DNA from: Lytechinus pictus
Taxonomy: Eukaryota
Length of the DNA stretch: 64,000 bases
NCBI RefSeq assembly: GCF_037042905.1
Contig: NC_087250.1
Span: forward strand, 28,274,001 to 28,338,000
Direction: 5' to 3'
Shown here: piece after piece, positions 8,821-36,556 of the stretch
Position numbering within the stretch: position 1 is the first letter of the stretch
Layout of the letters: the number at the start of each line of letters is the position of its first letter
Program-made: the position numbers and the translations under genes
Notes under the pieces: generated by a model
What the model saw: only the letters and a program-made list of their open reading frames with translations
Told to the model about the DNA's origin: nothing
Database searches by the model: none

Positions 8821-9339
8821 GTAGGAGAACTATGTTACCCCCCCCCCCCAAAAAAAAAAAAATATATATATATATATATGTATGTATATAATGTGGTATG
8901 ATCTCCTTTCTCCTTTTTAATCATCTTCAAGTGCATTTGCCTATTTGCACTCCCTGGTAGAAAAGGGACAGAATCAAGAGCTTGTTGCCAGCTTAGGCAT
9001 CAATGAAAGTATTTACATCAGCCTCTGCCCTTTCATCAAGTTTTCAAAAACTTGGAAAAAAATGAATCTGCACCCGTTGTCTTCAATTAGATGAATTAAT
9101 TCGGTCATGCGTGATACAAATGGTGCAAATAAGGTATTACTGGAAAGCAGATGAGTTTCTCTTTGATTCCCAAGCATAGTAATTTTATGTAAAAAATATA
9201 TTTCGAATATCAGCACTTTAGATTTGGATAACATTTTTTTTTCTGAAACGCACTGCATAAATCAACTGCAATCAGAAGAATAAGGAATGCTTATTTGACA
9301 TGTTTGAATTGAACAATAATAATTTGTAAATGATGACAG

Positions 9340-9471
9340 GTCTCTGGTCAGCAGACGATGGTGCATGTTGCCGCCGGGCCTATCCCGAAGGATTACTTTG
9401 GATTTGCGCTCTTCGTTACAATCCTCTGCTGCCTACCATTTGGTGTTGTTGGCCTCGTCAAATCAAGCGAG
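9340..9471 (+). CDS. CD225/dispanin family protein, exon 3
   Basis: ACAG| acceptor and GAG|GTAATT donor; encodes the CD225 signature PKDYFGFALFVTILCCLPFGVVGLVKSSE. Confidence 0.93.
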
Positions 9472-10210
9472 GTAATTAAGTTATGTCTGACCAACAAACG
9501 TAGAGGGCAGCAGCAACAGCAGTTGAAGCTTGGGGGAAAACGTATATATAAATACATCTCTTTTTATACCCCGAAAAAAGGATACTGTTATAATAACTTG
9601 GCCATCCAGAGGTATCTTTTATAAAATCCTTTATTCTGATTGGCTGATGGGTCATACCATGGCAGTTACCAATCGATGACAAAATTACAATGATAGTAAT
9701 TTTTGTACAACGGAGCTCTTGAGTATTTAAATTATTCCTAAACCGGGAATATTTTAAAAAATATGTTCACGTGGTACTGGATTGATTATGCTATTATTCA
9801 TCACGATTTTTGTAAAATATGAATTTCCAATATTTATGATAATTCGTTTAAACTTTAATAATTATTTCTTAATTTGTCAAATATGAATATTTAATACTCA
9901 TAGGTATGTTTGTAAAGCATCATTTAAAAAAAAGATATTTGTGCTATTAAAAAAAAATCATAATAATGAAAATGTTGATATACTTTTTTTTATTTTGTTC
10001 AAATTTTAATGGGCCTATTCATAAGTTATTTTATTTTTGTTTTAAACGTTTTATATTTACTATGGAACTATATCCATGCTGATTTTTTTTGTAAAAAGTA
10101 AACGAATAATTTACTTCATTTGAGTGGGAAATTTTTATTCTATTTTTCTTAAGTTGGATATTCAATATTTTATTTTTTAGAAGTTGATTTTATTTATAAT
10201 TTTTTTACAG

Positions 10211-10369
10211 GTGAAGAATCGTGCGGCAGGAGGAGATTATAACGGAGCAACAATCTCTTCATCTGAGGCTCGACGCTGGTCATGGGCTGGCTGTATTATC
10301 GGAGGGATTATGTGGGGTATTGCTCTCATTATGACGTGTGTCTACATAGGTTTTGCTGTGACTGCCTAG
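10211..10369 (+). CDS. CD225/dispanin family protein, exon 4 (PRRT1/IFITM-like; 156 aa in total)
   Basis: TTTACAG| acceptor; VKNRAAGGDYNGATISSSEARRWS plus a hydrophobic TM segment, ending at TAG. Matches the CD225 'GDxxGAxxxSxxA' pattern. Confidence 0.93.
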   Translation: MKNRAAGGDYNGATISSSEARRWSWAGCIIGGIMWGIALIMTCVYIGFAVTA

Positions 10370-10483
10370 CTGTAACGCTGGAAATTGCTAAACATGCCTG
10401 TCGGCGCTACAGAATGGGGAGGGGGCGGGGTTGGTTGGCGATCGCCCTCAATGATTTCCAATTGAAAGACAAGAAGAAACAGA

Positions 10484-18545: not shown

Positions 18546-19372
18546 AGGTTTAACTTAACCCTAGAAAGTTCGATCACTGCGCATACGTGTGTCACCGAAG
18601 TCTATCACGTGATCAACTTTTGACGGATCCATATCCCCAGGGGCGGATCAAGGATTTTTTAAAAGGGGGGCACATGTTCCCGAGGAAAAATTTTACAAGC
18701 AAAAAAACAAACAGGGTTTTAACAAAAAATTAAGAACATTTGTCAACGAACAAATTTGACAAGCAAGCAAAAAAAAAGGAAAAAAAAAGGTCTTTACTTT
18801 CAAAATCAAGGGGGGTGCACACTTCTGTTTTAACGGCATTTTTACATTACAAATTTTAATTGTACCTCTCAACTCCGCCAAATAATGTTACGTTGTTCCT
18901 TATTAGTTTATACATGTGGCGTTCCATAGGCGTTTACTGAGAGAACAGCGGAAGAAGCGGTGAGTTTCGCCACTAGCCATAAAATCAGCATTTATGGACA
19001 AATCTTTTGCCTTAATTGTTCCTATTAAATTTGCACAAATTGCCAGGTAGGTTGACATCTCATATAATATATTCATAGAAAGTTAATTAGTAATTAAGAC
19101 GCTTTTGCCCGAATGAAACAATATCGTAGTCCCACATGTTGACTTTCATGTAGACCAAAAGCTTCGGTCTCTGTTATATGCTCACTGCTATCTAACGTCC
19201 ATGCGCAGTGAGTCGCCATGTGCAATTTTTTTACTGTTGCGCCACTCACCTGTCACTGCCTGACTACAATGGTTCTAGAAATCTTTTGCAATGTTGAAAA
19301 GTGTCTTGTGGCATCTGATATTAATCCTCAGTAATTCCCTGAAACACTCTAGTCTAGGCGACACCCCAATAC

Positions 19373-20270
19373 CACTCCTAGTACCAATGAGGTCCAAACA
19401 ATGAAACATTAACATGTGATGTATGGACCTCATAGGCGACAATGCGTTAAAAACAGGTTAGAACTTCTAAACGTACTGTTTCTTGCACCCAAGTATGATA
19501 TTACTCCCAAAATATGAGTTTTGTCCTCGTTTGTTTATCATTTATTAAAAGATTGCCCGTTAAATATATTCCTATTCCTAATTTGAATTTAATAAAATAA
19601 AGGGAAACTTACATTTGAGTCATTTTTCGATCTTTTTTTGGCAGTCAGTCCGGTCACCGTCGAGTGCGATCAAAGCGGTATGAAGCTGATTTTCAGATCA
19701 CGTGATACGTGTGGTCATCACCTGATCAATCGACTATCCTTTTTTAAAGACCGCAACAATTATAAATTTTATTATAAAATATATATAGAATGAATAATTG
19801 CATGATATTATATATATTTCTACAATTAAAAATATTTCGTGATATGAATTTAATATTTGACGTAAAAATCGCTATTTAACAAAATATTTATTAAAAATAA
19901 AAAATCAAACAAAATAAAAACGCCTTGGACACAGTGCAAAAAACCTAACAATTTGGCCGCGTTCTTAACAACTATCGTAAGGGGCGCTCTATTTATAAAT
20001 AAAGTTGCATATGTAGCTGTCTACCGCGACAGGAACAGCCGCAGAATTGAAGCCAGAAGCGTGGGAAATTGCCAGAAAATTCAAGAAAAGAACCGGTGAG
20101 TACCGATTTAACAGTACTAATTTATTAAGTAACATTTATTGAATCATTACAAGATTTATTTTTTAGTAAAACAAAGCTTAGTTCTACTTCTAAGCTAGGG
20201 CGGCCCAAATGCGCGTGAGTGGAGTCCCAGTTTATTAGCACGGGTAAGTATTGGGGTGTCGCCTAGAGTG
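19373..20270. mobile_element. 898-bp member of the same family inserted in reverse into the outer copy's left end
   Basis: Exact 8-bp TSD CCCAATAC at 19365-19372 and 20271-20278. Begins with a type B end and finishes with a type A end (...GGGGTGTCGCCTAGAGTG). Confidence 0.85.
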
Positions 20271-20600
20271 CCCAATACTTACCCGTGTTAATAAACTGGG
20301 ACTCCACTCACGCGCATTTGGGCCGCCCTAGCTTACAACTAAGCTTTGTTTTACGAAAAAATAAATATTCTTATAATTCAATACATGTTACTAAATAAAT
20401 TTGTACTGTTAAATCGGTACTCACCGGTTCTTTTCTTGAATTTGCTGGCAATTTCCCACGCTTCTGGCTACAATTCTGCGACTAGCCCTGTCGCGGTAGA
20501 CAGCTACATATGCAACTTTATTTATAAATGGAGCGCCCCTTACGAGAGTTGTTAATGCCGCGGAGAAATCGTTAGGCATTTTTGCCTGTGTTCAAGGCGT
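19920..20600. repeat. ~680-bp imperfect palindrome with a 15-bp loop
   Basis: Arms ~19920-20255 and 20271-~20600; the inner 65 bp have one mismatch; loop is GTGTCGCCTAGAGTG. Confidence 0.95.
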
Positions 20601-23600
20601 AGCTGTTCTATTTTTTTTATAGGTATGAGATCGAAATCACAGCGAACTCGTATTTACACTCTTCCATAATGATTCCGAAAGAGAGGCGCATCACCCCCAC
20701 CCACATGGGCGCAAATCCCAGGGGGACATGTCCCCCTCACCCAAAATAGTCGGGGGCACATTATGAAATGCCCCTCTACTATTTTTGGTCTTTTAATTCA
20801 AAATCGAAATAATTAAAACATGTATTTTGGAAGAGACGATCTTACTTTTGGGGTGCCCTTCTTTTAATTGGGGTGATAAAACCTTTTTTTTTTTTTTTTT
20901 TTGCTTGTCAAATTTTCCAGCCCCTAGTCCCCCTACCTTTGGGGAGAGATTTCCGCCCTTGCCTAACACTACTCTTGATATTGTTTGCGAATCTGCATGG
21001 GCGTCGGGGGCTGGGGGATGAGGAAAAGCGGTGAGACGAGAAAAAAATAGAAGGGAAAAGAGAACAGAAATAAAGTGAACGAAAGATAAATTAATGGAAA
21101 ATAAAAGGGAGGAGAAGATAGTGAGAAAAGGGATTTTATGTGCCCGTGCAAAAAGAAATGAGCAGAGGTTGAGATGTTGTCCGTTTGGGCAAATTTTTGT
21201 CTGTATGTTGGACTGGCGCCTGTTGCAAAAATTATTAAGCTGATTGAATCAGGAAATGTTCCAACTGCTTCATGAGGATTTAGCGGTTGTAGGTATAAAT
21301 CCGTATAAATCGCGCTCTAACGCTCTAAAACTGTGTTCCGGGCTGTGGGGCTGTGTTCTTTAAAGTTGTCCTTCATATTCATTTTCGCAAAAGAATATCA
21401 AGTTTTCAATCAATTGTCTATAGTTATCCTGTTTATGATAAAAAATACTTAGAAATTGGGTTAGGTTAGGGTTAAAAATTATCAGGGCACAAAATATATT
21501 TTTTCAGCTCGAGCGTCGAGCTGGCATTATTTGATCTGTGAGATTATGTTTTTAATGACATTCATTCTATTCACAGCAATATATTATTAAACATTGCCGC
21601 ACGCGCTGCGTGCCGCATGAATTATAGATAGGTCTATACTTATCAGGTGAATGCTTTACCGCTTCACACTGATCATGCTGATACTGTTTTGTAAATTATA
21701 AAAAAGGGGAATTTCACCTTGATAAAAAGATTGTGATAATAAGAAAAATAATTTCAAAATATCGGTGAAGGTGTTATTATTATTTTTTTAATTGGAGTTA
21801 ATAGAATTTCGAATGCTTGATTTGTGACGCCATAAACAAGCAGTTGCTCTATATTCTATGTAATATAAAATGCCAAAATTTCCCATTTTTAATGGTCCGT
21901 AATGACCCACTTTTTTCTTTTTGGAACGAGTAGGGGTATGAAGTTATCTATTGAAATACTGAATGTACAATAAAAGTCATTATCATGTATTTCTTGACAT
22001 TTCATTTACTTTTTTTTTTACCATAATTATATCCTATATAGCTGCTCGCTTAGGTCTACGCCGTCTAATTTTTTTAAAATCTCACCTTTAATTTTTTTTT
22101 GGATGGGGGATTGATTTTCCTTGAATGCATACCAATTTTTCAAAGTATTTTTTTCTGCTATTTTCATAATAAACTTTAAATGAATTCACCTTTGCACTAC
22201 TTAATTTTTTCAAAGACAAAATTACATCTAGTCATCATCATCATCACCAACTTCATTCTCATCTTCATCACCACTAACACCATCATCATCATCACCGCCA
22301 CCATCACCACCACCATCATCTTCACCAAGATAATTTTCATCATCATAATCATTGCCATCATCATCTTTCCTTTTTTCTTATTTTTTCCCCTTCCAGTTCT
22401 TTTTTTCCCTTCATATTTTCCTCCTTTTTCAGAGGGGCACACCACCACGCCCCCTCATTGGATATCCGCCTCTAAACGTGTTTGATGTTGTATATAAGTT
22501 GGCGGATGCCTCATGAATTGAAATAACAGAGAAAATAAGGAAATGGAAAAAAGTAAGAAGAAAAAGAAGGATGAGGAGAAGAAAAAAAGAAAGCCAAACA
22601 AACAAGAAAAAACAATATCAAAATTTCGTAATAAAGTCTTCTACTTCAGTTTAATAATTGTGTTTTCAATGAAATGAGAACATAAAAGAATTGAAACAAG
22701 TAAAAAGGGCTACATCATAGTTAAAAGAAATAGAGGTAAGCTCCGAGACAATAAAAAAGGGTAAAAAAATAAGAAAATACTTTGAAACACTCACACCACG
22801 AGCATAATAAAAAAAATTGGGAATAAGCGAGGACAAGTAGCTGAGGGACCCCCCCCTCTCTCTAGTTATTTATCTATCAAACTCGCATTTACAAGAACTT
22901 CTTACTAATCAAAATATTGCGAGCAAAAAGCATGAGCTGGCATTTTTTTAAATATTCAAAACTGATAGAGAGACACCTTTTAAACAATTCATGAAACATA
23001 ATAATCATTCATTAGCTTAATCGAATCATTCGATTGCGAAAGGATCTGAGAATTTAGTGTTTTTAGGAATTCATTCGAAGCATAAAATTGTATCTCAACA
23101 TTAAAATAAGATGGGCGCAACGCATGAGCTAAAGCTTTATATACCAATACAAAATTTGGACATTTAAAATATTTTCGTATATAGTTATGAAAAAGATTGA
23201 TATTTCATGAAAGCTCGAATCCCGAGGAGGAATATTTTTTATTAATTAACTTTTAAAAAGGCTGTTCTAAGCCCCATTTAATATTTGATTATAAGTCGTA
23301 TAAAACAGTAAAAGCTGAAAAAATAAATTATTTTTTATTCCAAAATTATTCTCTTTCTCTTTAACCCTGGTTCTTTTTTTTCTGGGGGGGAGTATTTTGG
23401 TTTTAAAAAAGAGAGAAAAAAGATAATTGCTGGCTTGTACTGGACGGTAGTGGTAGGGACACCCCTCCGGACCCCCACCCCCCCCCCCCCCCCCCGTAGT
23501 TACGCGTTACGCCATTATTGGACCAAATGATCCTACATGTCCGAGGCGAAACTTGTGCAATCAATTAAACGTTATTTAAAAAAAAAAATTAAAGCTTGCG

Positions 23601-25178
23601 CTGTTTAACTTCAATCTCTTTCACCTAAATTTACGATGAATGCTAGCGTTATGAAATATATAACTATCAACGTCTGGTGAAAAGAATAACCAACCGATCA
23701 CCTGACGAGAACGCGTATCACGTGATCTGCATATCAGCTCCGATCGCGAGTCAGAAGTGAAGAGCAACTGCCAAGAAAATCAAGAAAAAGTCGTCAAAAT
23801 GTAAGTTTCCCTTAATTTCTTTCATTTTTTGTTGTTGCTAACAATGCATTTACACACTAAAATTTAAATTTAAATAAAAGAAACGAATTATAGCTTCTAC
23901 TTGGGATATAATATAGAAATATCCTGTTCTCAAAGATTTCTAACCCAAAATACTACTGATGTCGCCTATGAGGTCCATACATGTAATGTTTGGACCTCAT
24001 TGGTACTAGGAGTGCCCTGAAATGCTGCAACGTTTGGTTCAAAGATCCAGCAATAGACAAAGGAGTTAAGCGCAGTCAAAGTCAGACTTGCAAACTTGGT
24101 CCGTACGGTGCGAATTTAAGCTGCCATTTTTCTCGGGCGACGATTTGAGACGCCCACACTAAGCAATCGATGTTTCCAAAACTGCCCGCTCAAGTTACCA
24201 TTACCAATATTTGGTATCAAAATATAGATTATAAAAAAATGCTCACGATCATTTCATTTTGAAGGTGGGGGTGACAATTGTTATCAAAATAAGAGGGGTT
24301 GGCGACTCAACGTATATCTCAACCCACGGAGAGGTTTCAACAATGCAGCTGAGTCAATGCACTTTTGTGTACGATCGGTGCGTGTGTGTGCGCATGCGCG
24401 ATATGTCTGTGTAGTAAATGTATTGGATTTTTTTAATCGGCGACTCAAAATATACCCATCATTGTGTCGCCGTTCCGGAAGTGTGTATTTCATGATGTTC
24501 TTACTAAAAACTATAGCAATTTCAGGAGAAAAGTTTATCATATATTTCAAAGGATTTGTGGATACTTTCATCTCATACAAAGATTTGGGTGATAATTTTT
24601 TTTTTTGGTTGCAAAATTGAAGGTTGAAGACTGCCGATGGCGACTCACTGCGCATGGACGTTAGACAGCTGGCAGCCGTCTGTTTCGAGGAGTTTTTTAG
24701 CATTTTTTTATTTTTTAAATTTCTCCTCATACACAGACGGCTCGCTATCGTGCAGCCACCATTAGGGGACTTACAATGCAAAATCCCCCCGTCGGGGCTC
24801 TTCAATTTTTGTCTTTAATGAATCAAACTTTTGAAAATTAACGCGACCGAAGACAAAGTGCAAATTAATATTCCCTCTTGGCATTAATTGCCAAAAAACG
24901 GCGAAAATCAAGTTAAAAGGAACAAAAACAGTGACTTACCTCGGCTGTCGCGCAACTTCACTGCCCTGTTTTATCCGAACTTAATACACATACCTAATAA
25001 ACATATGGCCATTGAGTCCGATCCCCTGTACAGATCGCGCTAGAACTTTGGTCTCTGTATTTGGTGAGTGAAGCCAACGGAGTTCAGCTGAACAACCAAC
25101 ATAACAGAGACCGAAGTTTTTGGTCTCACTGCTATCCTGCCTGTGGAGAATCTACAGGTAGGACTATGGTTTGCCAAT

Positions 25179-26938: not shown

Positions 26939-27845
26939 ATGGGTAAAAGTGACAGCCTTAAGAGACAACGCCAAGCAACTTCTGAGGAAAAAAGTGACGT
27001 CAAATCAGGAAAAGCGAACAATGCTGACAAGACTGCCACGCCCCGGGAAAAGGTACGTACTGCAAGTACGAACGATACAGATATGATGTTACGTAACATT
27101 CTCGAGAAGGTGTCTGTTCTTGATGAGATTAAAACTGAATATAAATACCATATCAGAGAGAATGAGCAGAATTGAAACTAAGTTTGAGAGGATGGATACA
27201 AGGATTCAAGATGTGGAAAATGCGACAGAGTTTATGGAAAATGAAATGAGGGAAATGGAGGAAGAAATTCAAAACATTCAAGCAACAAAGGCGAGCTATG
27301 AATATGTTAATAAGCTGAGAAGAGATGTAGTAGATCTAGTCAACCGTAGCAAGCAAAACAACGTGATCCTACATGGGATTCCTGAAGGGGTAGAAGGCGC
27401 ACCGAGCAATTGCATAACATTTGCACGTGACTTCTTCAGGTAGTATTTGCATATCAATGATGTTGAGATTGAACGTGCCCATCGAACCCCCGCCAGCGCC
27501 AGAGATCAGCGAAGCGAGAGACCGAGTAGGCCACGCCCAATGCACGTTAAATTGCTCCGATACACAGATAGAGTGGCAATCTTGAAAGAAAGCGGCAAAC
27601 TCAAAGCAGTTGAAATTCAGGGGTCACGTGTTGGAATAAGCGATGATGTTCACACGGATACAAGAAACGAACACAAGAGGCTAATGATGAAAGTGAAAGA
27701 TCTTCGATCACAAAATATATTTGCATTCATCCCAAACTCAGTACCACGTGTTATAAAGTATAAAGATGTCCCCAAAGATCTACCCGGCCCCCTTAAAACA
27801 TTGAGGTTGGCCGATCTTGATAACGGCAATGTTAAAACGGTCTGA
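26939..27845 (+). pseudogene. LINE ORF1p (coiled coil + RRM, L1 type), with frameshift and stop
   Basis: Three consecutive ORFs with DLVNRSKQNNVILHGIPEG and EIERAHR...PRP; frameshift near 27135 and TAG at 27441. Confidence 0.88.
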
Positions 27846-28398
27846 TAAAGTGTTTAGAGAAATAAACAATACGACTACGTCTCTCTTTTTATGTCATACG
27901 AATGTCTGTGCCGACAACTAATCTTTTACTGCCAGGAGCTCCCCTCCCTGCACTACTTTTTGTTTTTTCCATCATGATAGGTAAACTTAAAGCGGTCGAC
28001 CCTCTGACTTCTTTTTTACCCTTATTTTTTATGTGTCTGGTACGGGTAGTCCGGTTTTTAGGTTTTTGTTTGTTTGCCTATAAATCTAGGCCTGAAAGTA
28101 ATTCACATTATATTTTACTTTCCATGTTTGTATTTGTGAAGATATCTCAATACTTAATTATACGGTTGTTATCAACACATAATAACCTATCAACTTTATG
28201 AACGATTTTATAGATATAAAAATTTGCTCCCTGAATGTAAGGGGTTTGAGAAACGATTTTAAGAGAAGGTGCATTTTCAACTGGATCAGGACTCTTGACT
28301 TTCATCTAATACTGTTACAAGAATGAAGAATCCCACTCGACAACGAGATCAGAGCGAAGATGGAAACACGAATGGGGATATAAAATATTATTTAATCT

Positions 28399-29079
28399 GA
28401 AGTTCTCAAACCAAAAAGTGACAAGGAGACCACCGACAGAATACCGCTTGTGACCACCTTCCATCCCAATCTACCCCCTCTCCGCAAAATCCTGTTTGAT
28501 AACCACCACATTTTACACACTTCTGATCGTCTCCAACAGGCCGTTCCCGATACTCCCCTTCTAGCATACCGACGCCCACCGAATCTCAGGGACCTCATTG
28601 TTCGTGCTGAAGTGCCCTCCCTCACTAACCATTCTTCTCCCATACAGCATGGCACCTTCAAATGCACCAGCAACAGGTGCATCATATGTGAAATACACCT
28701 TCACGAGGGCGATACTTTCACCAGCAACTCTACCAGCCTGTCTCACCAAATCAAGGGCAACATCACATGCACTACCACTAATGTTGTATATCTCATCACT
28801 TGCAGAGTTTGTAGGGTACAATACATAGGGGAAACCAAGACCACACTCAAGAAACGATTCTACGGGCACAGATCCACCGTCAACACAGCAAAGCTGGACA
28901 CTCCAGTTGGCCGCCATTTTAACCTCCCCAACCACTCCATCACTGACATGATGCTACAGGGCATCGAATCTTTAGGTACCCGTCCTGACTCAGTCCGTAC
29001 TAGCAGGGAGAAGCTCTGGATGAGACGACTTCGCACCACCCAACCTCATGGCCTGAACATCCAAGAGGGGAACGACTGA
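28399..29079 (+). CDS. Penelope-like linker + GIY-YIG endonuclease (5'-truncated, frame open)
   Basis: AYRRPPNLRDLIVRA, CxxxxCxxC linker, NVVYLITCRVCRVQYIGET...RFYGH...HFN...RE..W...L.T..P.GLN. Confidence 0.9.
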   Translation, partial: EVLKPKSDKETTDRIPLVTTFHPNLPPLRKILFDNHHILHTSDRLQQAVPDTPLLAYRRPPNLRDLIVRAEVPSLTNHSSPIQHGTFKCTSNRCIICEIHLHEGDTFTSNSTSLSHQIKGNITCTTTNVVYLITCRVCRVQYIGETKTTLKKRFYGHRSTVNTAKLDTPVGRHFNLPNHSITDMMLQGIESLGTRPDSVRTSREKLWMRRLRTTQPHGLNIQEGND

Positions 29080-29398
29080 TTTTTCTTTCCTATCCACTTT
29101 CAATTTATATATACATATAATTTTTCCCCTCAGCTCTTTTGAATAGTTACATTATAGTTTCTTACTCTACTTTCCTCCCATATCTCATACAAGCTCAGCT
29201 CCAATTTTTCCTTCCTTATTCAGGCGATATAATAATTATTATATATATATATATATTTGTTTTTTCTCCACTCACCTCTTTTAGATTTACCACATTTGCT
29301 TATTTACATGTATACTATGGTTTCTTCATAATACACCCCCTCTCTTCTATATTTGCTTTTACCTTTTTAGGCAATTTGCTTCCTCTTTTTCACATATA

Positions 29399-29442
<44 letters not shown>

Positions 29443-30019
29443 CTTTCCTTCTATATAGTCTTATGTTTTTCCCGTCACACCTAGCGGATTACCATATCAG
29501 TTACACCATATGTGTATATATTTATATATTTTTTCATATACATTTCTCTTTTGGATATATTTATATACATATCACTTATAGATACATATTTACACTTACC
29601 TTCTTCTCTTAGTTTGTTTAATGCTTTATCATATATACTTATATGTCTTTTGCACATTATCAGTTGTTCCCCATTCTTTTTCTTCTTTTTTTCCCCCCAC
29701 TCTTATGCACCAGTTTATTAAGCCTTTCTTTGTAACCTGTTTGACCCACCTCTCACTAATTCTCTAGTTATTCATCCCTCTATCACTGTTTTGTTCCAGA
29801 TCCTGTTTGATGTTGCCTGCCTCATTATCTTAATCCCTCTTGGCCTTACTTACACTAACTTCCCTTTGTGTCTGCCTACTCCTTTTCTTTCATCCCCTTC
29901 ACTAACCTGATTGGTCTTCTCTACTCACTAATGCCCCTTTTGTCTCCTTGTTTCTAGTGTTGCTGTAGCTTGTTTGTGGTCTATATTATGGTTGTTCCAC
30001 TTTATATGTTTGTCATTTT

Positions 30020-30058
30020 GCCTCCGACGAAGATTCTGCTAGGATCGAAAGCTTAGGC
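30020..30058 (+). ncRNA. Minimal type-I hammerhead-ribozyme-like motif (core variant CCGACGA)
   Basis: GCCT-CCGACGA-A-GATTC..GGATC-GAAA-GCTT-AGGC gives stem I, stem II and a palindromic stem III, at the Penelope 3' end where such motifs are expected. Confidence 0.6.
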
Positions 30059-33000
30059 CCCTTTTTGACTTTATAATATTATTTAATCACGGAACATCAG
30101 GAAGTGCCGGAGTGTGCATTCTCTTCAAACCATCTGCTTCATTTGACGTTGTAAACACTGTTAAAGACGACCACGGAAGAATACTACTTACGATATTAAA
30201 AATAAATGAAATGATGTTAACAGTTGGAAATATATACGGTCCAAACAACGACGACAGTTCTTTTTTCGAAGACTTACATTCTCTTATATTTGAACATTGT
30301 GAAGAACCCTATGTGTTAGCAGGAGATTTTAACACGGTTTTGGAACCCACAAAATATAAATTCCCCAAAGCTTTCCAAAACCATCCAAGATGTAAAAAGG
30401 TAATAATAGAAATAATTGATGATTTTGATTTACTGGACATTTGGCGCCATACTCATCTACCAGACAAAAAATATACATGGATGTGAAAAGATATGAGATT
30501 CAGAAGTAGAATTGATTATTTCCTCATTTCTCAAACCTTATCGTCTTCTGTTGTAACAAGTGACGTTACCTATGGTTATAAATCAGATTATTCGTTGGTA
30601 TCACTAGTTCTAATAAAATCAATTACCAAAAGGGGGCCAGGTTTCTGGAAATTGAATACCTCTCTTTTAGCTGATACTGTCAAGAAAATTAAAAAAGAAA
30701 TTGTTTCAATTTTGAATGGAAATGATAACCTTCACCCCTTACAACGCTGGGAATATTTGAAGTACAAAATAAAACAGAAGATAATACAAATCTCAAAACA
30801 AAAGAAAATGGAAGATCAGGAGAAAATGAAAAGTTTAGAAAAAGAAATCAATTATTTAAATGATATTATTCAAAGTTGCGTGGATAATGAATTAGCAAGC
30901 AAATTAGAAGAGAAAAAAAGAGAATTTGAAATATTACATGAAGGTGTTGTACGTGGGACAATCGTGCGATCGAAAGTGAGATGGATCGCAGAGGGAGAGA
31001 AAAATACCAAATACTTTGCAAACTTAGAAAAAAGAAATTACCAACAGAAATGTATATTTCGGCTCCAAACAGATACAGGTATTATTTTTAATTCAAAAAA
31101 TATTCTTGAAGAAGAAAGGACCTTTTATGCTAATTTGTATTCATCTCAAGAGAACATTCTGAATAAGAATATATCAATGAAAAACTTAAATATACCAACT
31201 GTAAATGAGAGTGACATAAATATGTTGGGATCAATGATAACAGAGAAGGAGTGTTATGATTCGATTATGTCTTTTGCAACAAGTCACCAGGGAGTGACGG
31301 GTTGCCAATTGAGTTCTACAAGACTTTTTGGAATGAAATAAATCCTTTACTATGTTCAGTTTTTAATGAAAGTTTTGAAAAAAATGTATTACCTCATTCA
31401 ATGAGGAGAAGTATTATTACACTGTTGCCTAAAAAAGGGAAAAATTTACTTTTACTGAAAAATTGGCGTCCAATCTCTTTATTAAATAGTGATTATAAGA
31501 TTCTCGCAAAAATTATTTCTTTCCAAATAAAAAAAGTAATATCACCTCTCATAAATCATGATCAATGTGGTTTTCTCAAAGGATGTTATATTGGCGAAAA
31601 TTTAAGACTTTTTATTGATATTCAAAATTATTGCAAAAAGCACAATGTTGGCGGTCTTGCACTCTGTATTGACTTTGAAAAAGCGTTTGATACAGTTGAG
31701 TGGTCTTTTATATACAAAACAATAAGAAGGTTCGGTTTCAGTGAAAAATTTGTTCGTTGGGTTCAACTTCTTTATGTTGATATTAAAGGTTGTGTAATAA
31801 ATAATGGCTATTCCTCAAATATTTTTGAAATACACCGCGGAGTATTAAAGACAAGGTTGTCCGCTCTCGCCATATCTCTTTATTTTAGTTGTTGAAATTT
31901 TAGGTTGTTTAGTTCGAGAAAATCAAGAAATTTGTGGTTTAAAAATATATGATAATACTGAAATAAAAATAAGTCAATATGCAGACGACACAACCATTTA
32001 CCTTGAACCCAACGAACAAAACTTATGAAAATGCATATCTGTATTAAATACTTTTAAAGAAATGTCTGGATTGAAAGTCAATGTTGAAAAGTGTAATGTT
32101 ATTCAACTTGGGAATTGTACAATGTATTTATGCCAAGACATTCCTTTTTAATGGCCCGTAGATTATTTTTCTTATTTAGGCATAAAAATCCCATTAAGCG
32201 ATAAACATACTTTTTTTTTATTTAAACTTTATACCAAAACTGGATGAGATCAAATCTCTGTTAAACATTTGGAATGGTAGATCTCTTACATTGTATGGAA
32301 AGATAGTAGTAATAAAAAAATTGGTCATTCCAAAACTAATATATCTTTTAAGCATTATTTCAGACCCACCACCGACCTTCTTTATCGAAATGCAACAGCA
32401 ATTATTTAATTTTTTATGGAGTAAAAAAGGTGATAAAATTAAGCGTTCTCTGTTATACAATGACTACAAAGATAGTGGTCTAAAAATGTTACATTTGTCA
32501 CGTTTTAATCAAGCACTTAAAGTATCATGGGTCAAAAGATTTTTAGATGATGATAATGGGAAATGGAAGTGTTTTTTTAAAGAATCTGTTCGTTTCATTG
32601 GTGAGAGCAAATTTACGATTTTGAATATTAGCAAAAGTCATATATTATTCAATCCATGTACCAAAACTGTTTAGAATGATGTATTGAGTTCATGGTCATA
32701 TTACAGATACTATCATCCTGTTAAGTTTAAGGAAATACTGTCGCAACCTCTGTGGTTCAATTCACACATTTTAGTTGATGGAAAACCTCTTTATATTCAA
32801 AGATGGTCAGAATCTTCTTTAAACACTATTTACGATTTTCTAACAGAAGATGGACTTTTTAAGTCTTTTGAAGTTATAGTTGAGAACTACGGTTACACAT
32901 CCATCATGATGTATAATTCATTATTATCTGCCATACCAAATGAATGGAAAAGAGTTATTAGAAAAAAAATACATAAAACAGAATACACCTTTTGAACCAC

Positions 33001-34433
33001 ACGACGATCGATTACGTAATTTCCTTAAACACAATAAAGTTTCTAAACTGTTATTCTCATTTTATAAATAATTATACTTTGGACATGTCAGAGACAGATC
33101 AACGTTACAAATGGGAAAACGACCTTTCACTGCAACTATCAAATAATGAAATTTGGAATTCTCGTTTTACCCTGATATACAAATCGTCAATAGATAACAA
33201 ACTAAGGAACTTCCAAGTTAAATTTATACACAGAAAAGTGTCGACAAATCGTTATTTATATAAAATCGGAATTTTGATCAAGACATATATGTGATTTTTG
33301 TAATGAACAAAATCAAACATTGATGCATCTGTTTTTTGAATGCCAATTTGTTTCGAACTTTTGGAACAATTTGTGTACTTGGTTGACTTTAAAAATTATA
33401 CGTTCTTATAAGTTATCTAATTTAGAAATTTGTTTTGGAACATTGGATAGAGAACATTTTTATTTGGTAAATACCATAATACTATGCAGCAAATATTTTA
33501 TTTTTTCATGCAAATATAGTAAAACAATTCCTCTTTTAAAATCGTTTCTATGTACTCTAACACAGTTAGAAAAAACAGAACGCTACATTTCTTTTAAACA
33601 TAATCGTTCGGAGTTTCACAGAAAAAAGTGGAATATAATTACTATGAAAGAGTAAAGGGCATAGATCTATTTTTTGTTGTTTTGAATTAGATCTGTTGTA
33701 TATTACTTTAACCTAGCATGGTGTCTATCTATATGAATGTAAAAGAATCATGTATCTGTTTCTGAGATATTTTTGTTAAAATGTGAATTGCAAATAAAAC
33801 TCATTAAAAAAAAAAAGTGAAATGATCTTTCACTTTCATTTCAGGAAAAAAGAAGGAAGGGAATAGTTTTTTATTTCTTAATTGTTTTCAATGAAATGAA
33901 AACAATTTTGAGGGAATATTGCAAAATATGTGAGCATTTCATACATGTTTAAGATGTGAAAACAACTTTTTTGAAGCAGTATTTTTTTGTTCACACCCCT
34001 CTTGCCTGGTAAACCTAACCATCTGTTTATTAGAAGGTTACATTAGGTTCAATTGCAGGATCTTCTGTTCCTTTATGTCCAGCTCCTGGTGATTTACAGT
34101 GACACTCTCGTCTGAAGAATTGGCGCGGTTTGGCGGAGGAACCTTATAATGAAATTTAAATTCTGCATTACACCACCAATATCAATTCTCTTCAAATTGT
34201 AGTATATCCTCAGACTCTACTACAAGCTTTAATAGAAAGACTATTCCATAGAAGTTTGTATGTGTATTCTTGTTACATGTAGGTCTAATCTTGAAAAGCT
34301 TGTGTGCATGACCCCATTATATTGGTGTGAGAATTCAGTTTTAGACATGAGGCAACATCAGGGTAATATTTGTGGAGAAGGTATCTATCATGTCACCCCT
34401 AGCTTGTCTATAAACAAGAGTAGGCCAATGAAT

Positions 34434-35053: not shown

Positions 35054-35740
35054 TTAAGCTTCTTCAGTCTGTCAGGAAATGAGAGCCTTTTCATAAGATG
35101 GGACTTAGCGAGTAGCTCACTCTGCACACTAAAAAAAACCCTGTGTCTAGATAATGGTTCAGATTTTCTTAATTTGATAAGAAGACGTTTTGAGACCATT
35201 TAGAGTTCATGTAATACCTAGTGTTTCTATCACATGTGATCTTATTTTGGGTTGTATATTGTTCAATAAGGCCTAGAGGCTAGACCATGTTTCAGATGAC
35301 TTTGTAGGCCTAGAGTAAATCAGAATTAATCAGATTTTTACTTTTCATGTGTCAAGGCATTCAGGATGCATTTCTGAGACGGATGGGGTATGAGATGTTT
35401 ATGTCGGTGTATTTGTAAATTGCTGTGTAACAAAAAGTTGCATGAGATTCGAATAAAAGGTCATGCAACTTTTGACACCAATGGGAAAATTGTGGAGTAT
35501 TTTTTTATTTATATACTAGTATTTAATATCTGTGTGTGTTATATAGAAATTAAGCCCTGAAAATATCAAGATTTAAGGCATTTGATGTTCATAGAATAGT
35601 TTAAGGCCTGGATTTTTTCAAAGAATCTAAAGCCTGATTGGCAAAGCCTGCCTCTCACCTAGAGCTGAGATTTGTGCTTGTGTGTGAGCCAGGCTTAACA
35701 AGTTCAATAATGAAATATGTCTTTTTTGTGTCTACTGCAG

Positions 35741-36556
35741 GAAACATCTTGAAGCAGACAGTTTCTGGGATGATGGCAGACGTCTGATGCGGGTTTATCA
35801 TGATCACATAGCCATTCCTGTTAATACTCGGTGTACAGAGACATTGCTGAATAGAGATGGATTGGAAGGAAAGGTTTCATTTCTTAATGCATCAGATAGT
35901 AACAGTGAAGCTAATGAAACATTGAAGACAGGAGCACACCAGTCTCTTCTGAAGAGAGATGGATTGGAAGGAAAGGTATCATTTCTCAATGCATCAAATA
36001 GTAACAGTGAAGCTAATGAAACATTGAAGGCAGGAGCACACCGATCTCTCTTGAAGCCATCCTCATTTATAGAGAGTGGTGTAAAATCAGGTCTTCGAAC
36101 GCAAGGTAGTTCACCATTCTGCAGTAGTTCCCAAGAGAAAGAACAGTCTACCACTCTGTTATGTGTAACACCTGTTGGACATACACATGTGTCAGAGACT
36201 GGTAGCAGAACCCTTCTTCATTCAACCTCTAATAAGTATACAAGTGAGCTATCATGTCAGAATGGTGGTTTTCACCACTCTCCCACCAACCCATCTGGAC
36301 ATCCACCTGTATTATGGAATGGGAAAATATTCAACATGGAAGCAAAGCTGGTCTGCATGTATTTATCACCCTCAAAGAAAACTAAAATCACCTCTCCTTA
36401 CGATAGACTGAAAGTGATGATAGAAGGATGGATCAAAGAAAGAAGGATAGATTGGAAAGAGGAGTTAAGAGATGAGATTCCTAGGAATTGGGAGAGACAT
36501 GGAGATTTAGTGTTATTACCATCGTCATCCTTCAGAGATCAAGCATGGGATAATGT
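35741..36556 (+). CDS. TRMT12: tRNA wybutosine-synthesizing protein 2, first recognisable coding exon
   Basis: TACTGCAG| acceptor; KHLE...IAIPV...SPYDRLK...EIPRNWERHGDLVLL resembles the TYW2 N-terminal region. A GT|GTAGGT donor gives the correct phase into 37957. Confidence 0.85.

Follow-up and report, generated by a model that had tools for sequence, protein, structure and literature searches.

The window analysed here is a stretch of 64,000 nucleotides (nt) from the urchin Lytechinus pictus (contig NC_087250.1 of assembly GCF_037042905.1, positions 28,274,001 to 28,338,000 of the forward strand), and it carries the gene TYW2, as a flanking protein is 99% identical to an L. pictus TYW2 model. 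The first coding exon of TYW2 lies at 18994-19046 (+ strand), with an 89% match to residues 1-18 of the L. variegatus models P0007-P0009; exon 2 begins at 35741, and intron 1 measures 16.7 kb here. Two nested mobile elements are inserted in intron 1, only 298 nt past the exon 1 donor, so the insertion adjoins the host promoter. The two ends of these elements, termed A and B, carry outward-facing modules that resemble a promoter, a first exon and a splice donor, and in some copies RNA is spliced out at the first donor of end A.

A previous reading of this DNA, made from the letters alone (the sequence-only reading), had described a single element at 19600..23810, whereas the region comprises two. 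The outer element (19345..24014, no strand assigned; 4670 nt including the nested copy and ~3.8 kb without it) extends from its left end, A, to its right end, B, with termini reading CACTC(C)TAG, and it is flanked by the target duplication CCCTGAAA at 19337..19344 and 24015..24022 (both +). The inner element (19373..20270, no strand assigned; 898 nt), with end B on the left and end A on the right, sits within the A-end tip of the outer element in the opposite orientation and is flanked by CCCAATAC at 19365..19372 and 20271..20278 (both +). CACTC(C)TAG has four matches in the 64-kb window, which are exactly the four element ends. Both copies have CACTC..GAGTG termini (CAC..GTG), in which the exact part of the terminal inverted repeat (TIR) is 5 nt, and 8-bp target duplications of constant length (n=2). 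CAC..GTG with an 8-bp repeat is by itself a weak criterion, satisfied by seven pairs in the window, five of which do not have the shared termini. At 19349-19358, the outer A tip contains a short tandem duplication (TCTAG twice) that is absent from the inner A tip.

The interior of the outer element (20620..23680, no strand assigned) is gene-less and consists of simple repeats and a piece of another repeat (20704-20961). None of its three open reading frames (ORFs) of at least 90 aa scores above the Pfam cut-off, which bears out the proposal that no internal transposase is driven by the ends. Both copies are gene-less transposons, likely of the non-autonomous cut-and-paste type, and exact pattern scans of metagenome and viral contigs returned no match to the element patterns and no master copy. 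The sole sub-terminal word common to A and B is TAGGCGACA, which is placed at position 6 of end A but at 47 or 61 of end B, a degree of sharing that 29 and 59 of 500 shuffles reproduce. Subterminal hairpins with the same stem are found in B2, the B end of the outer element (23965..24003, +; z -5.3, 0/200 shuffles), and, with a longer loop, in B1, the B end of the inner element (19384..19436, -; z -3.4, 0/200 shuffles), and for end A the fold is equalled by 10 of 200 shuffles. A match to the Rfam family mir-16 at 20224-20302 exceeds the gathering score and is a false positive caused by the fold-back junction of the two A ends; the remaining Rfam rows lie far under their gathering scores.

The A end of the inner element (A1, + strand) is organised as a succession of conserved and variable segments. 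The TATA block (19974..20003) contains TATAAATA at 19994, is likely a core promoter and shows no listed difference in a contig that is 21% diverged overall. It is followed by a putative non-coding first exon (20015..20095), which lacks an ATG and whose presumed start coincides with a conserved segment (20015-20030) placed where a start would be expected. The donor block (20086..20108) holds donor 1, CCG/GTGAGT at 20096 (the slash marks the splice site), which is the point of RNA exit. Downstream, an AT-rich, intron-like stretch (20114..20187) precedes a conserved terminal block (20188..20270) with donor-like sites at 20215 and 20244 (CGG/GTAAGT), at which no splicing is seen. The A end of the outer element (A2, 20279..20618, -) has the same plan, with a TATA box at 20526, donor 1 (GTGAGT) at 20424 and a donor-like site at 20282. 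A1 and A2 are closely related: they differ at 8 of the 135 nt that span the TATA block, the exon and the donor, at 8 of 73 nt in the AT-rich part and at 2 of 60 nt in the terminal block. In the last 175 nt of A1, AATAAA occurs four times inward and never outward (0.46 expected), and A2 has three; this count was made post hoc, and as a lead it fits the idea of an outward-facing cassette.

Comparison with reads and contigs of other copies covered end A (19930-20278) in four of the 23 listed runs, at a likeness of 82%, so that reads of the whole family are counted. No run on record as RNA is among those listed, which counts neither way. About 6% of each raw run was read, which yielded 116 reads for X21 and 103 for X23, both from one study; X1 consists of contigs and is RNA by guess, and X9 is DNA by guess. 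A contig from X9 has 30 differences from A1 over 140 positions; 28 of the 30 are listed, and none of these 28 falls in 19974-20003 or 20086-20108. The conservation of the two blocks has a P of 2e-5 even if both unlisted changes are placed inside them, and that of the donor block alone has a P of 0.002 to 0.08; the blocks were chosen post hoc, and the first is the spot at which the contig joins its neighbours, a step that itself demands 30 shared letters. Every change from G or T in X9 is among the listed rows, and the donor is untouched. A diverged subfamily, represented by seven X21 reads and by contigs of X1 and X9, has 68 unrelated letters in place of the 74-nt AT-rich part.

Donor 1 is used in some copies. 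In X23, five of the 103 reads leave end A exactly after 20095 for unrelated sequence, as the sequence-only reading had predicted for donor 20096; their agreement of 0.72 indicates that there is more than one partner, and the majority partner begins with a Kozak-like CAAAATG. Two contigs of X1 do likewise, with exits after 20095 and after 20093 and at least 255 foreign letters beyond each exit, and the contig with the exit after 20093 is read as a copy whose exon ends in CAG/. Loose ends that are caused by divergence lie elsewhere, at 20030, 20061, 20120 and 20188, and none of the five X9 records has a loose end. RNA from the element is thus joined at donor 1 of end A to at least three different outside sequences, and such a variety of partners points to promiscuous splicing and not to one dedicated gene.

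In end B, the two copies are far more diverged, with 56% identity over 394 columns and 52.5% in the 299 non-terminal columns. B1 contains an E-box block (19694..19709, -) and a donor block (19600..19616, -), and B2 contains the same two blocks at 23714..23729 and 23797..23813 (both +). The E-box block reads CGTATCACGTGATCTG and includes TCACGTGA (at 19698 and 23718), and the donor block reads AAAT/GTAAGTTTCCCTT, with GTAAGT donors at 19612 and 23801. Once the terminal 95 columns are set aside, the longest identical runs between B1 and B2 are the 17-nt donor block and the 16-nt E-box block, and a second run of 16 is found in none of 20000 column permutations, in a test that ignores clustering and alignment bias; the claim that E-box and donor are kept between the B copies is therefore upheld. 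Additionally, the putative B exons end in AAAT, so that splicing to an exon starting with G would give an ATG, which on TYW2 exon 2 would be in frame.

All of the motifs named in the sequence-only reading are present, at 19994, 20096, 20244, 19698, 23718, 23801, 19612 and 20424, and the donors match the U1 complement at 9, 10, 8 and 8 of 11 positions, the best being 20244. Among the 6483 GT sites in the window, 15 have at least nine U1 matches, and four of these belong to A1 and A2. Within 250 nt of the tips, GTRAGT occurs outward and inward three and zero times in A1, once and zero times in B1 and in B2, and twice and zero times in the 222-nt part available for A2, against an expectation of 0.13 per 250 nt and strand. 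One explanation of this conservation is that the blocks are kept for transposition, either as sites for a transposase or host factors or as weak promoters and U1 sites that hold the ends in open chromatin, with the spliced chimeras being noise from a strong donor. The scarcity of spliced reads (5 of 103 in X23, none listed among the 116 of X21) would agree with this, as would the position of the best U1 match, 20244, in the terminal block with no use seen, and the ends of the transposon BuT5 are reported to be kept owing to transposase binding sites, as far as the available part of that source goes (PMC3698922). However, every donor faces outward, and 175-240 nt separate the tips from the internal blocks of A and B, with diverged DNA between these blocks and the terminal ones. 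The GTRAGT hexamer is the only motif that the internal blocks of A and B have in common, as would be the case if they were recognised by the U1 machinery of the host instead of by a single transposase. We regard conservation for transposition as distinctly unlikely.

The likeness between A and B was also examined beyond the donors. A match over ~40 purine-rich nt is found between the 130-nt modules upstream of the donors of A and B2, with a local score equalled by none of 500 shuffles and none of 56 other donor-upstream stretches, whereas A and B1 show no resemblance above chance (264 and 345 of 500 shuffles equal the score). When the ends are taken wider, the A-B scores are reached in 3 to 12 of 300 shuffles. 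The suggestion that A and B are anciently diverged long TIRs accordingly finds agreement in the A-B2 pair and not in the A-B1 pair. Of the two motifs cited for it, GCATAT.AGCT matches B2 alone, and TGCCA...CAAGAAAA is shared by A1 and B2 but not by the other copies; a diverged A copy (X9 record 11) departs from it at six of 20 nt. Common descent of A and B as long TIRs is possible on these alignments, and convergent leader composition would account for the likeness equally well.

The modules might instead be left over from a parent that had two divergent genes, or from captured host promoters, and be drifting now that the genes have been deleted. A weak resemblance of A to the TYW2 5' leader (5/500 shuffles) is in line with capture, as is the E-box 12-mer that B has in common with the TYW2 upstream region: the 64 kb hold three copies of TATCACGTGATC, in B1, in B2 and upstream of TYW2, against 0.002 expected per strand. 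Drift is difficult to reconcile with blocks that remain unchanged across divergence of 21% (A) and about 45% (B), and with a donor-to-tip distance that is held (74 vs 68 nt in the variable part of A); the relic explanation is very improbable. The third copy of TATCACGTGATC (18603..18614, +) lies 391 nt before the TYW2 start codon, and this single instance of the motif suggests a likely host promoter element.

Several other features accompany the host gene. A short insertion-like repeat at 18635-18830 separates the E-box at 18603 from the TYW2 leader, and parts of it match 20878-20916 in the outer element. A donor, GCG/GTGAGT, is present at 18960, 34 nt before the TYW2 start codon; its use would skip the ATG and could account for models that start at the next Met (P0002). 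The L. pictus models P0001 and P0004, whose starts map to this window, lack exon 1; they begin elsewhere in intron 1, at 35347 or inside an ORF at 27192. The models P0005 and P0006 resemble a second TYW2 copy that is 86-87% identical. Inverted matches of 33 and 26 nt flank the insertion (19152-19219 versus 24637-24669 and 25101-25126) and are accompanied by words that resemble promoter motifs and by strong donors, at 19249 (-) and 24939 (-); they may represent either an older element or a local inverted duplication. Farther into intron 1, broken ORFs at 27087-33655 resemble, by eye, pieces of retrotransposons without long terminal repeats (LTRs), and one at 28396-29079 resembles a Penelope-type nuclease. 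A gene of the CD225 family (9337-10370) ends ~8.6 kb before TYW2 exon 1.

In light of these observations, the reading that is tentatively favoured, and that could well be correct, is that the elements are mobile first-exon cassettes, in which each end provides a promoter, a leader exon and a donor and thereby limits the damage of insertion near promoters. Elements with fixed termini, 8-bp duplications and no coding capacity have entered TYW2 298 nt into intron 1, and the family may prefer open, promoter-near DNA in the manner of P elements. TATA, E-box and donor blocks are kept between subfamilies as the intervening DNA diverges, and the recurrence of the B 12-mer upstream of TYW2 alone also favours this reading. 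Polymerase II would start behind the TATA box (A) or the E-box (B) and produce a leader of 60-80 nt. The foreign sequences to which donor 1 of end A is joined, at least three in number, may be the next exons of host genes. Whichever its orientation, the element would present the remainder of the gene with a promoter and a donor, so that a gene hit near its start would likely stay expressed; insertions would be cheaper for the host, and such copies would spread.

A number of results weigh against this reading. No loose end at 20095 is among those listed for the 116 reads of X21, and most reads at the terminus pass unspliced (31 in X21, 25+5 in X23). Donor 20244, for which split reads had also been predicted, has no loose end at 20243 among those listed, and the end-A reads reveal no use of it or of an internal intron; a two-exon A leader (intron 20096 to ~20196, followed by donor 20244) finds no support, as no such joint is listed. 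The predicted 5' ends near 20020 do not appear as a pile of read starts at end A. Assuming the usual strandedness, the outward and inward depths are 12.9 to 3.5 and 11.5 to 6.2 in the exon, 17.5 to 9.1 and 12.5 to 6.3 upstream of the TATA box, and 18.7 to 29.8 and 20.8 to 28.9 in the terminal block, where the outward depth is the lower; because the outward depth upstream of the TATA box is at least that in the exon, much of the signal is read-through. The three donor partners are absent from the 64-kb window at up to three mismatches, and splicing into TYW2 is thus not demonstrated by them. X1 is only guessed to be RNA, and a single insertion site is too few to establish a preference for promoters. 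The proposal of a mobile bidirectional first-exon cassette in the sequence-only reading therefore survives in part: splicing out of donor 1 of end A, the lack of a transposase and the nearby host promoter agree with it, and the missing start pile, an upstream depth as high as that of the exon and the lack of observed use of donor 20244 do not. The word bidirectional draws only on sequence conservation. A stronger version, in which the element is a natural two-way cassette for restarting genes, with modules under selection for rescuing genes hit near their start and with end B supplying the start codon (exon end AT plus the G of TYW2 exon 2), is doubtful.

The modules may alternatively be promoters of the element's own genes, with splicing into the host as a by-product. 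In the composite form of this explanation, the ~0.9-kb unit is a solo terminal repeat of a unit-interior-unit element; in the joined-end form, the genes are read in circles or tandem arrays. The composite form has a model in KolobokP, composite DNA transposons with abundant solo terminal repeats that are known from L. pictus among others, according to the accessible portion of the report (PMC9587614); its repeats are 450 or 660 bp, and repeats outnumber interiors in L. pictus by 44 to 10 and 400 to 3 (PMC9587614 Table S1, in the portion available). KolobokP resembles the present family in having solo, gene-less units with their own ends and offers a model for why a unit might bear outward promoters, although the word promoter occurs 0 times in the main text as available (PMC9587614). 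Additionally, both B exons end AAAT/GT as if built for one partner, and the family inserts into its own tips. Against this, there are at least three different splice partners, and the outer copy of 3.8 kb is not a repeat of fixed length. Reads passing the A terminus at 20270, the end of the inner element, split into mixed flanks (agreement 0.39 and 0.43), none of which dominates, so copies with joined ends do not predominate in these runs, which weighs against transcription across joined ends. The ends of KolobokP, moreover, are RR..YY and its duplications 3-5 bp long, and five short motifs of the urchin element are all absent from the available supplements (PMC9587614); given CAC..GTG and 8 bp here, membership in KolobokP is ruled out. 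Two direct terminal repeats around a coding interior, as in KolobokP, are absent at this locus. We hold it to be unlikely that the modules serve genes of the element itself.

To place the proposed first-exon cassettes among known systems, the closest functional parallel is maize Mu, from which outward transcripts enter the host gene in either orientation in 20 of 33 alleles, and the authors propose that this limits insertion damage (10.1101/2023.06.05.543741). Both are non-autonomous DNA transposons, and outward initiation is shown for Mu and proposed for the urchin element. The Mu promoter is minimal, is located within long symmetrical TIRs or close to them, and transcribes directly into the gene, and the available text describes no leader exon with its own donor (10.1101/2023.06.05.543741); by comparison, the urchin ends are unlike each other (TATA versus E-box), and each has a putative exon and donor. 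Oncogene-trap transposons likewise use an outward promoter and a splice donor to force splicing to downstream exons, but they are man-made and carry a viral LTR promoter, as described in the accessible part of PMC3016246; the urchin element would be their equivalent in nature, with one cassette per end.

With regard to build, the closest element is BuT5, a miniature inverted-repeat transposable element of a divergent P element, which is ~1 kb long and gene-less with 3-bp TIRs, 8- or 9-bp duplications and an interior unrelated to its master element (PMC3698922, available part). P elements favour promoters, and their dimers are found near start sites (10.1101/158386, available part). The urchin element has duplications and short TIRs within the range of the P superfamily (7-9 bp); BuT5 differs in having 16-17-bp sub-TIRs and a known master, whereas the urchin ends share CACTC and a 9-mer at unequal depth, and promoter occurs 0 times in the BuT5 main text as available (PMC3698922). 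In the KDZ group, as far as the accessible parts of the sources describe it, Zisupton, Dileera and KDZ1 have 8-bp duplications (PMC12730594, PMC11343200), and Kyakuja has CA..TG ends without TIRs and 7-bp duplications, with Kyakuja-1_AuPo starting CAC (PMC12730594). The urchin duplication fits Zisupton and the urchin ends fit Kyakuja, but neither set fits as a whole (PMC12730594); two Dileera rows start GAC (PMC12730594), KDZ1 has 236-bp TIRs (PMC11343200), and no transposase ties the urchin family to KDZ. P-type or KDZ elements would both fit the ends, and no superfamily is assignable without a master element. Solo LTR, Helitron and CACTA readings are rejected on the termini and the duplication length. 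CMCT duplications are 2-5 bp (PMC12730594, available part).

First exons derived from transposons are well known for retroelements. The literature surveyed contains no natural DNA transposon with a promoter, a leader exon and a donor at both ends; Repbase Reports and most subscription papers lie outside this coverage, and an earlier description may exist. If the composite explanation were true, the family would represent an undescribed transposon architecture with 8-bp duplications. Stable transgenesis exists in L. pictus, so the idea that the modules restart host genes is directly testable (PMC11361634, in its available part). The conserved interiors of short gene-less elements are mostly unexplained, and if the modules do restart host genes, an animal DNA transposon would pay for insertion near promoters with complete first exons, which would be a step beyond the minimal promoter of Mu and a steady source of new gene starts.

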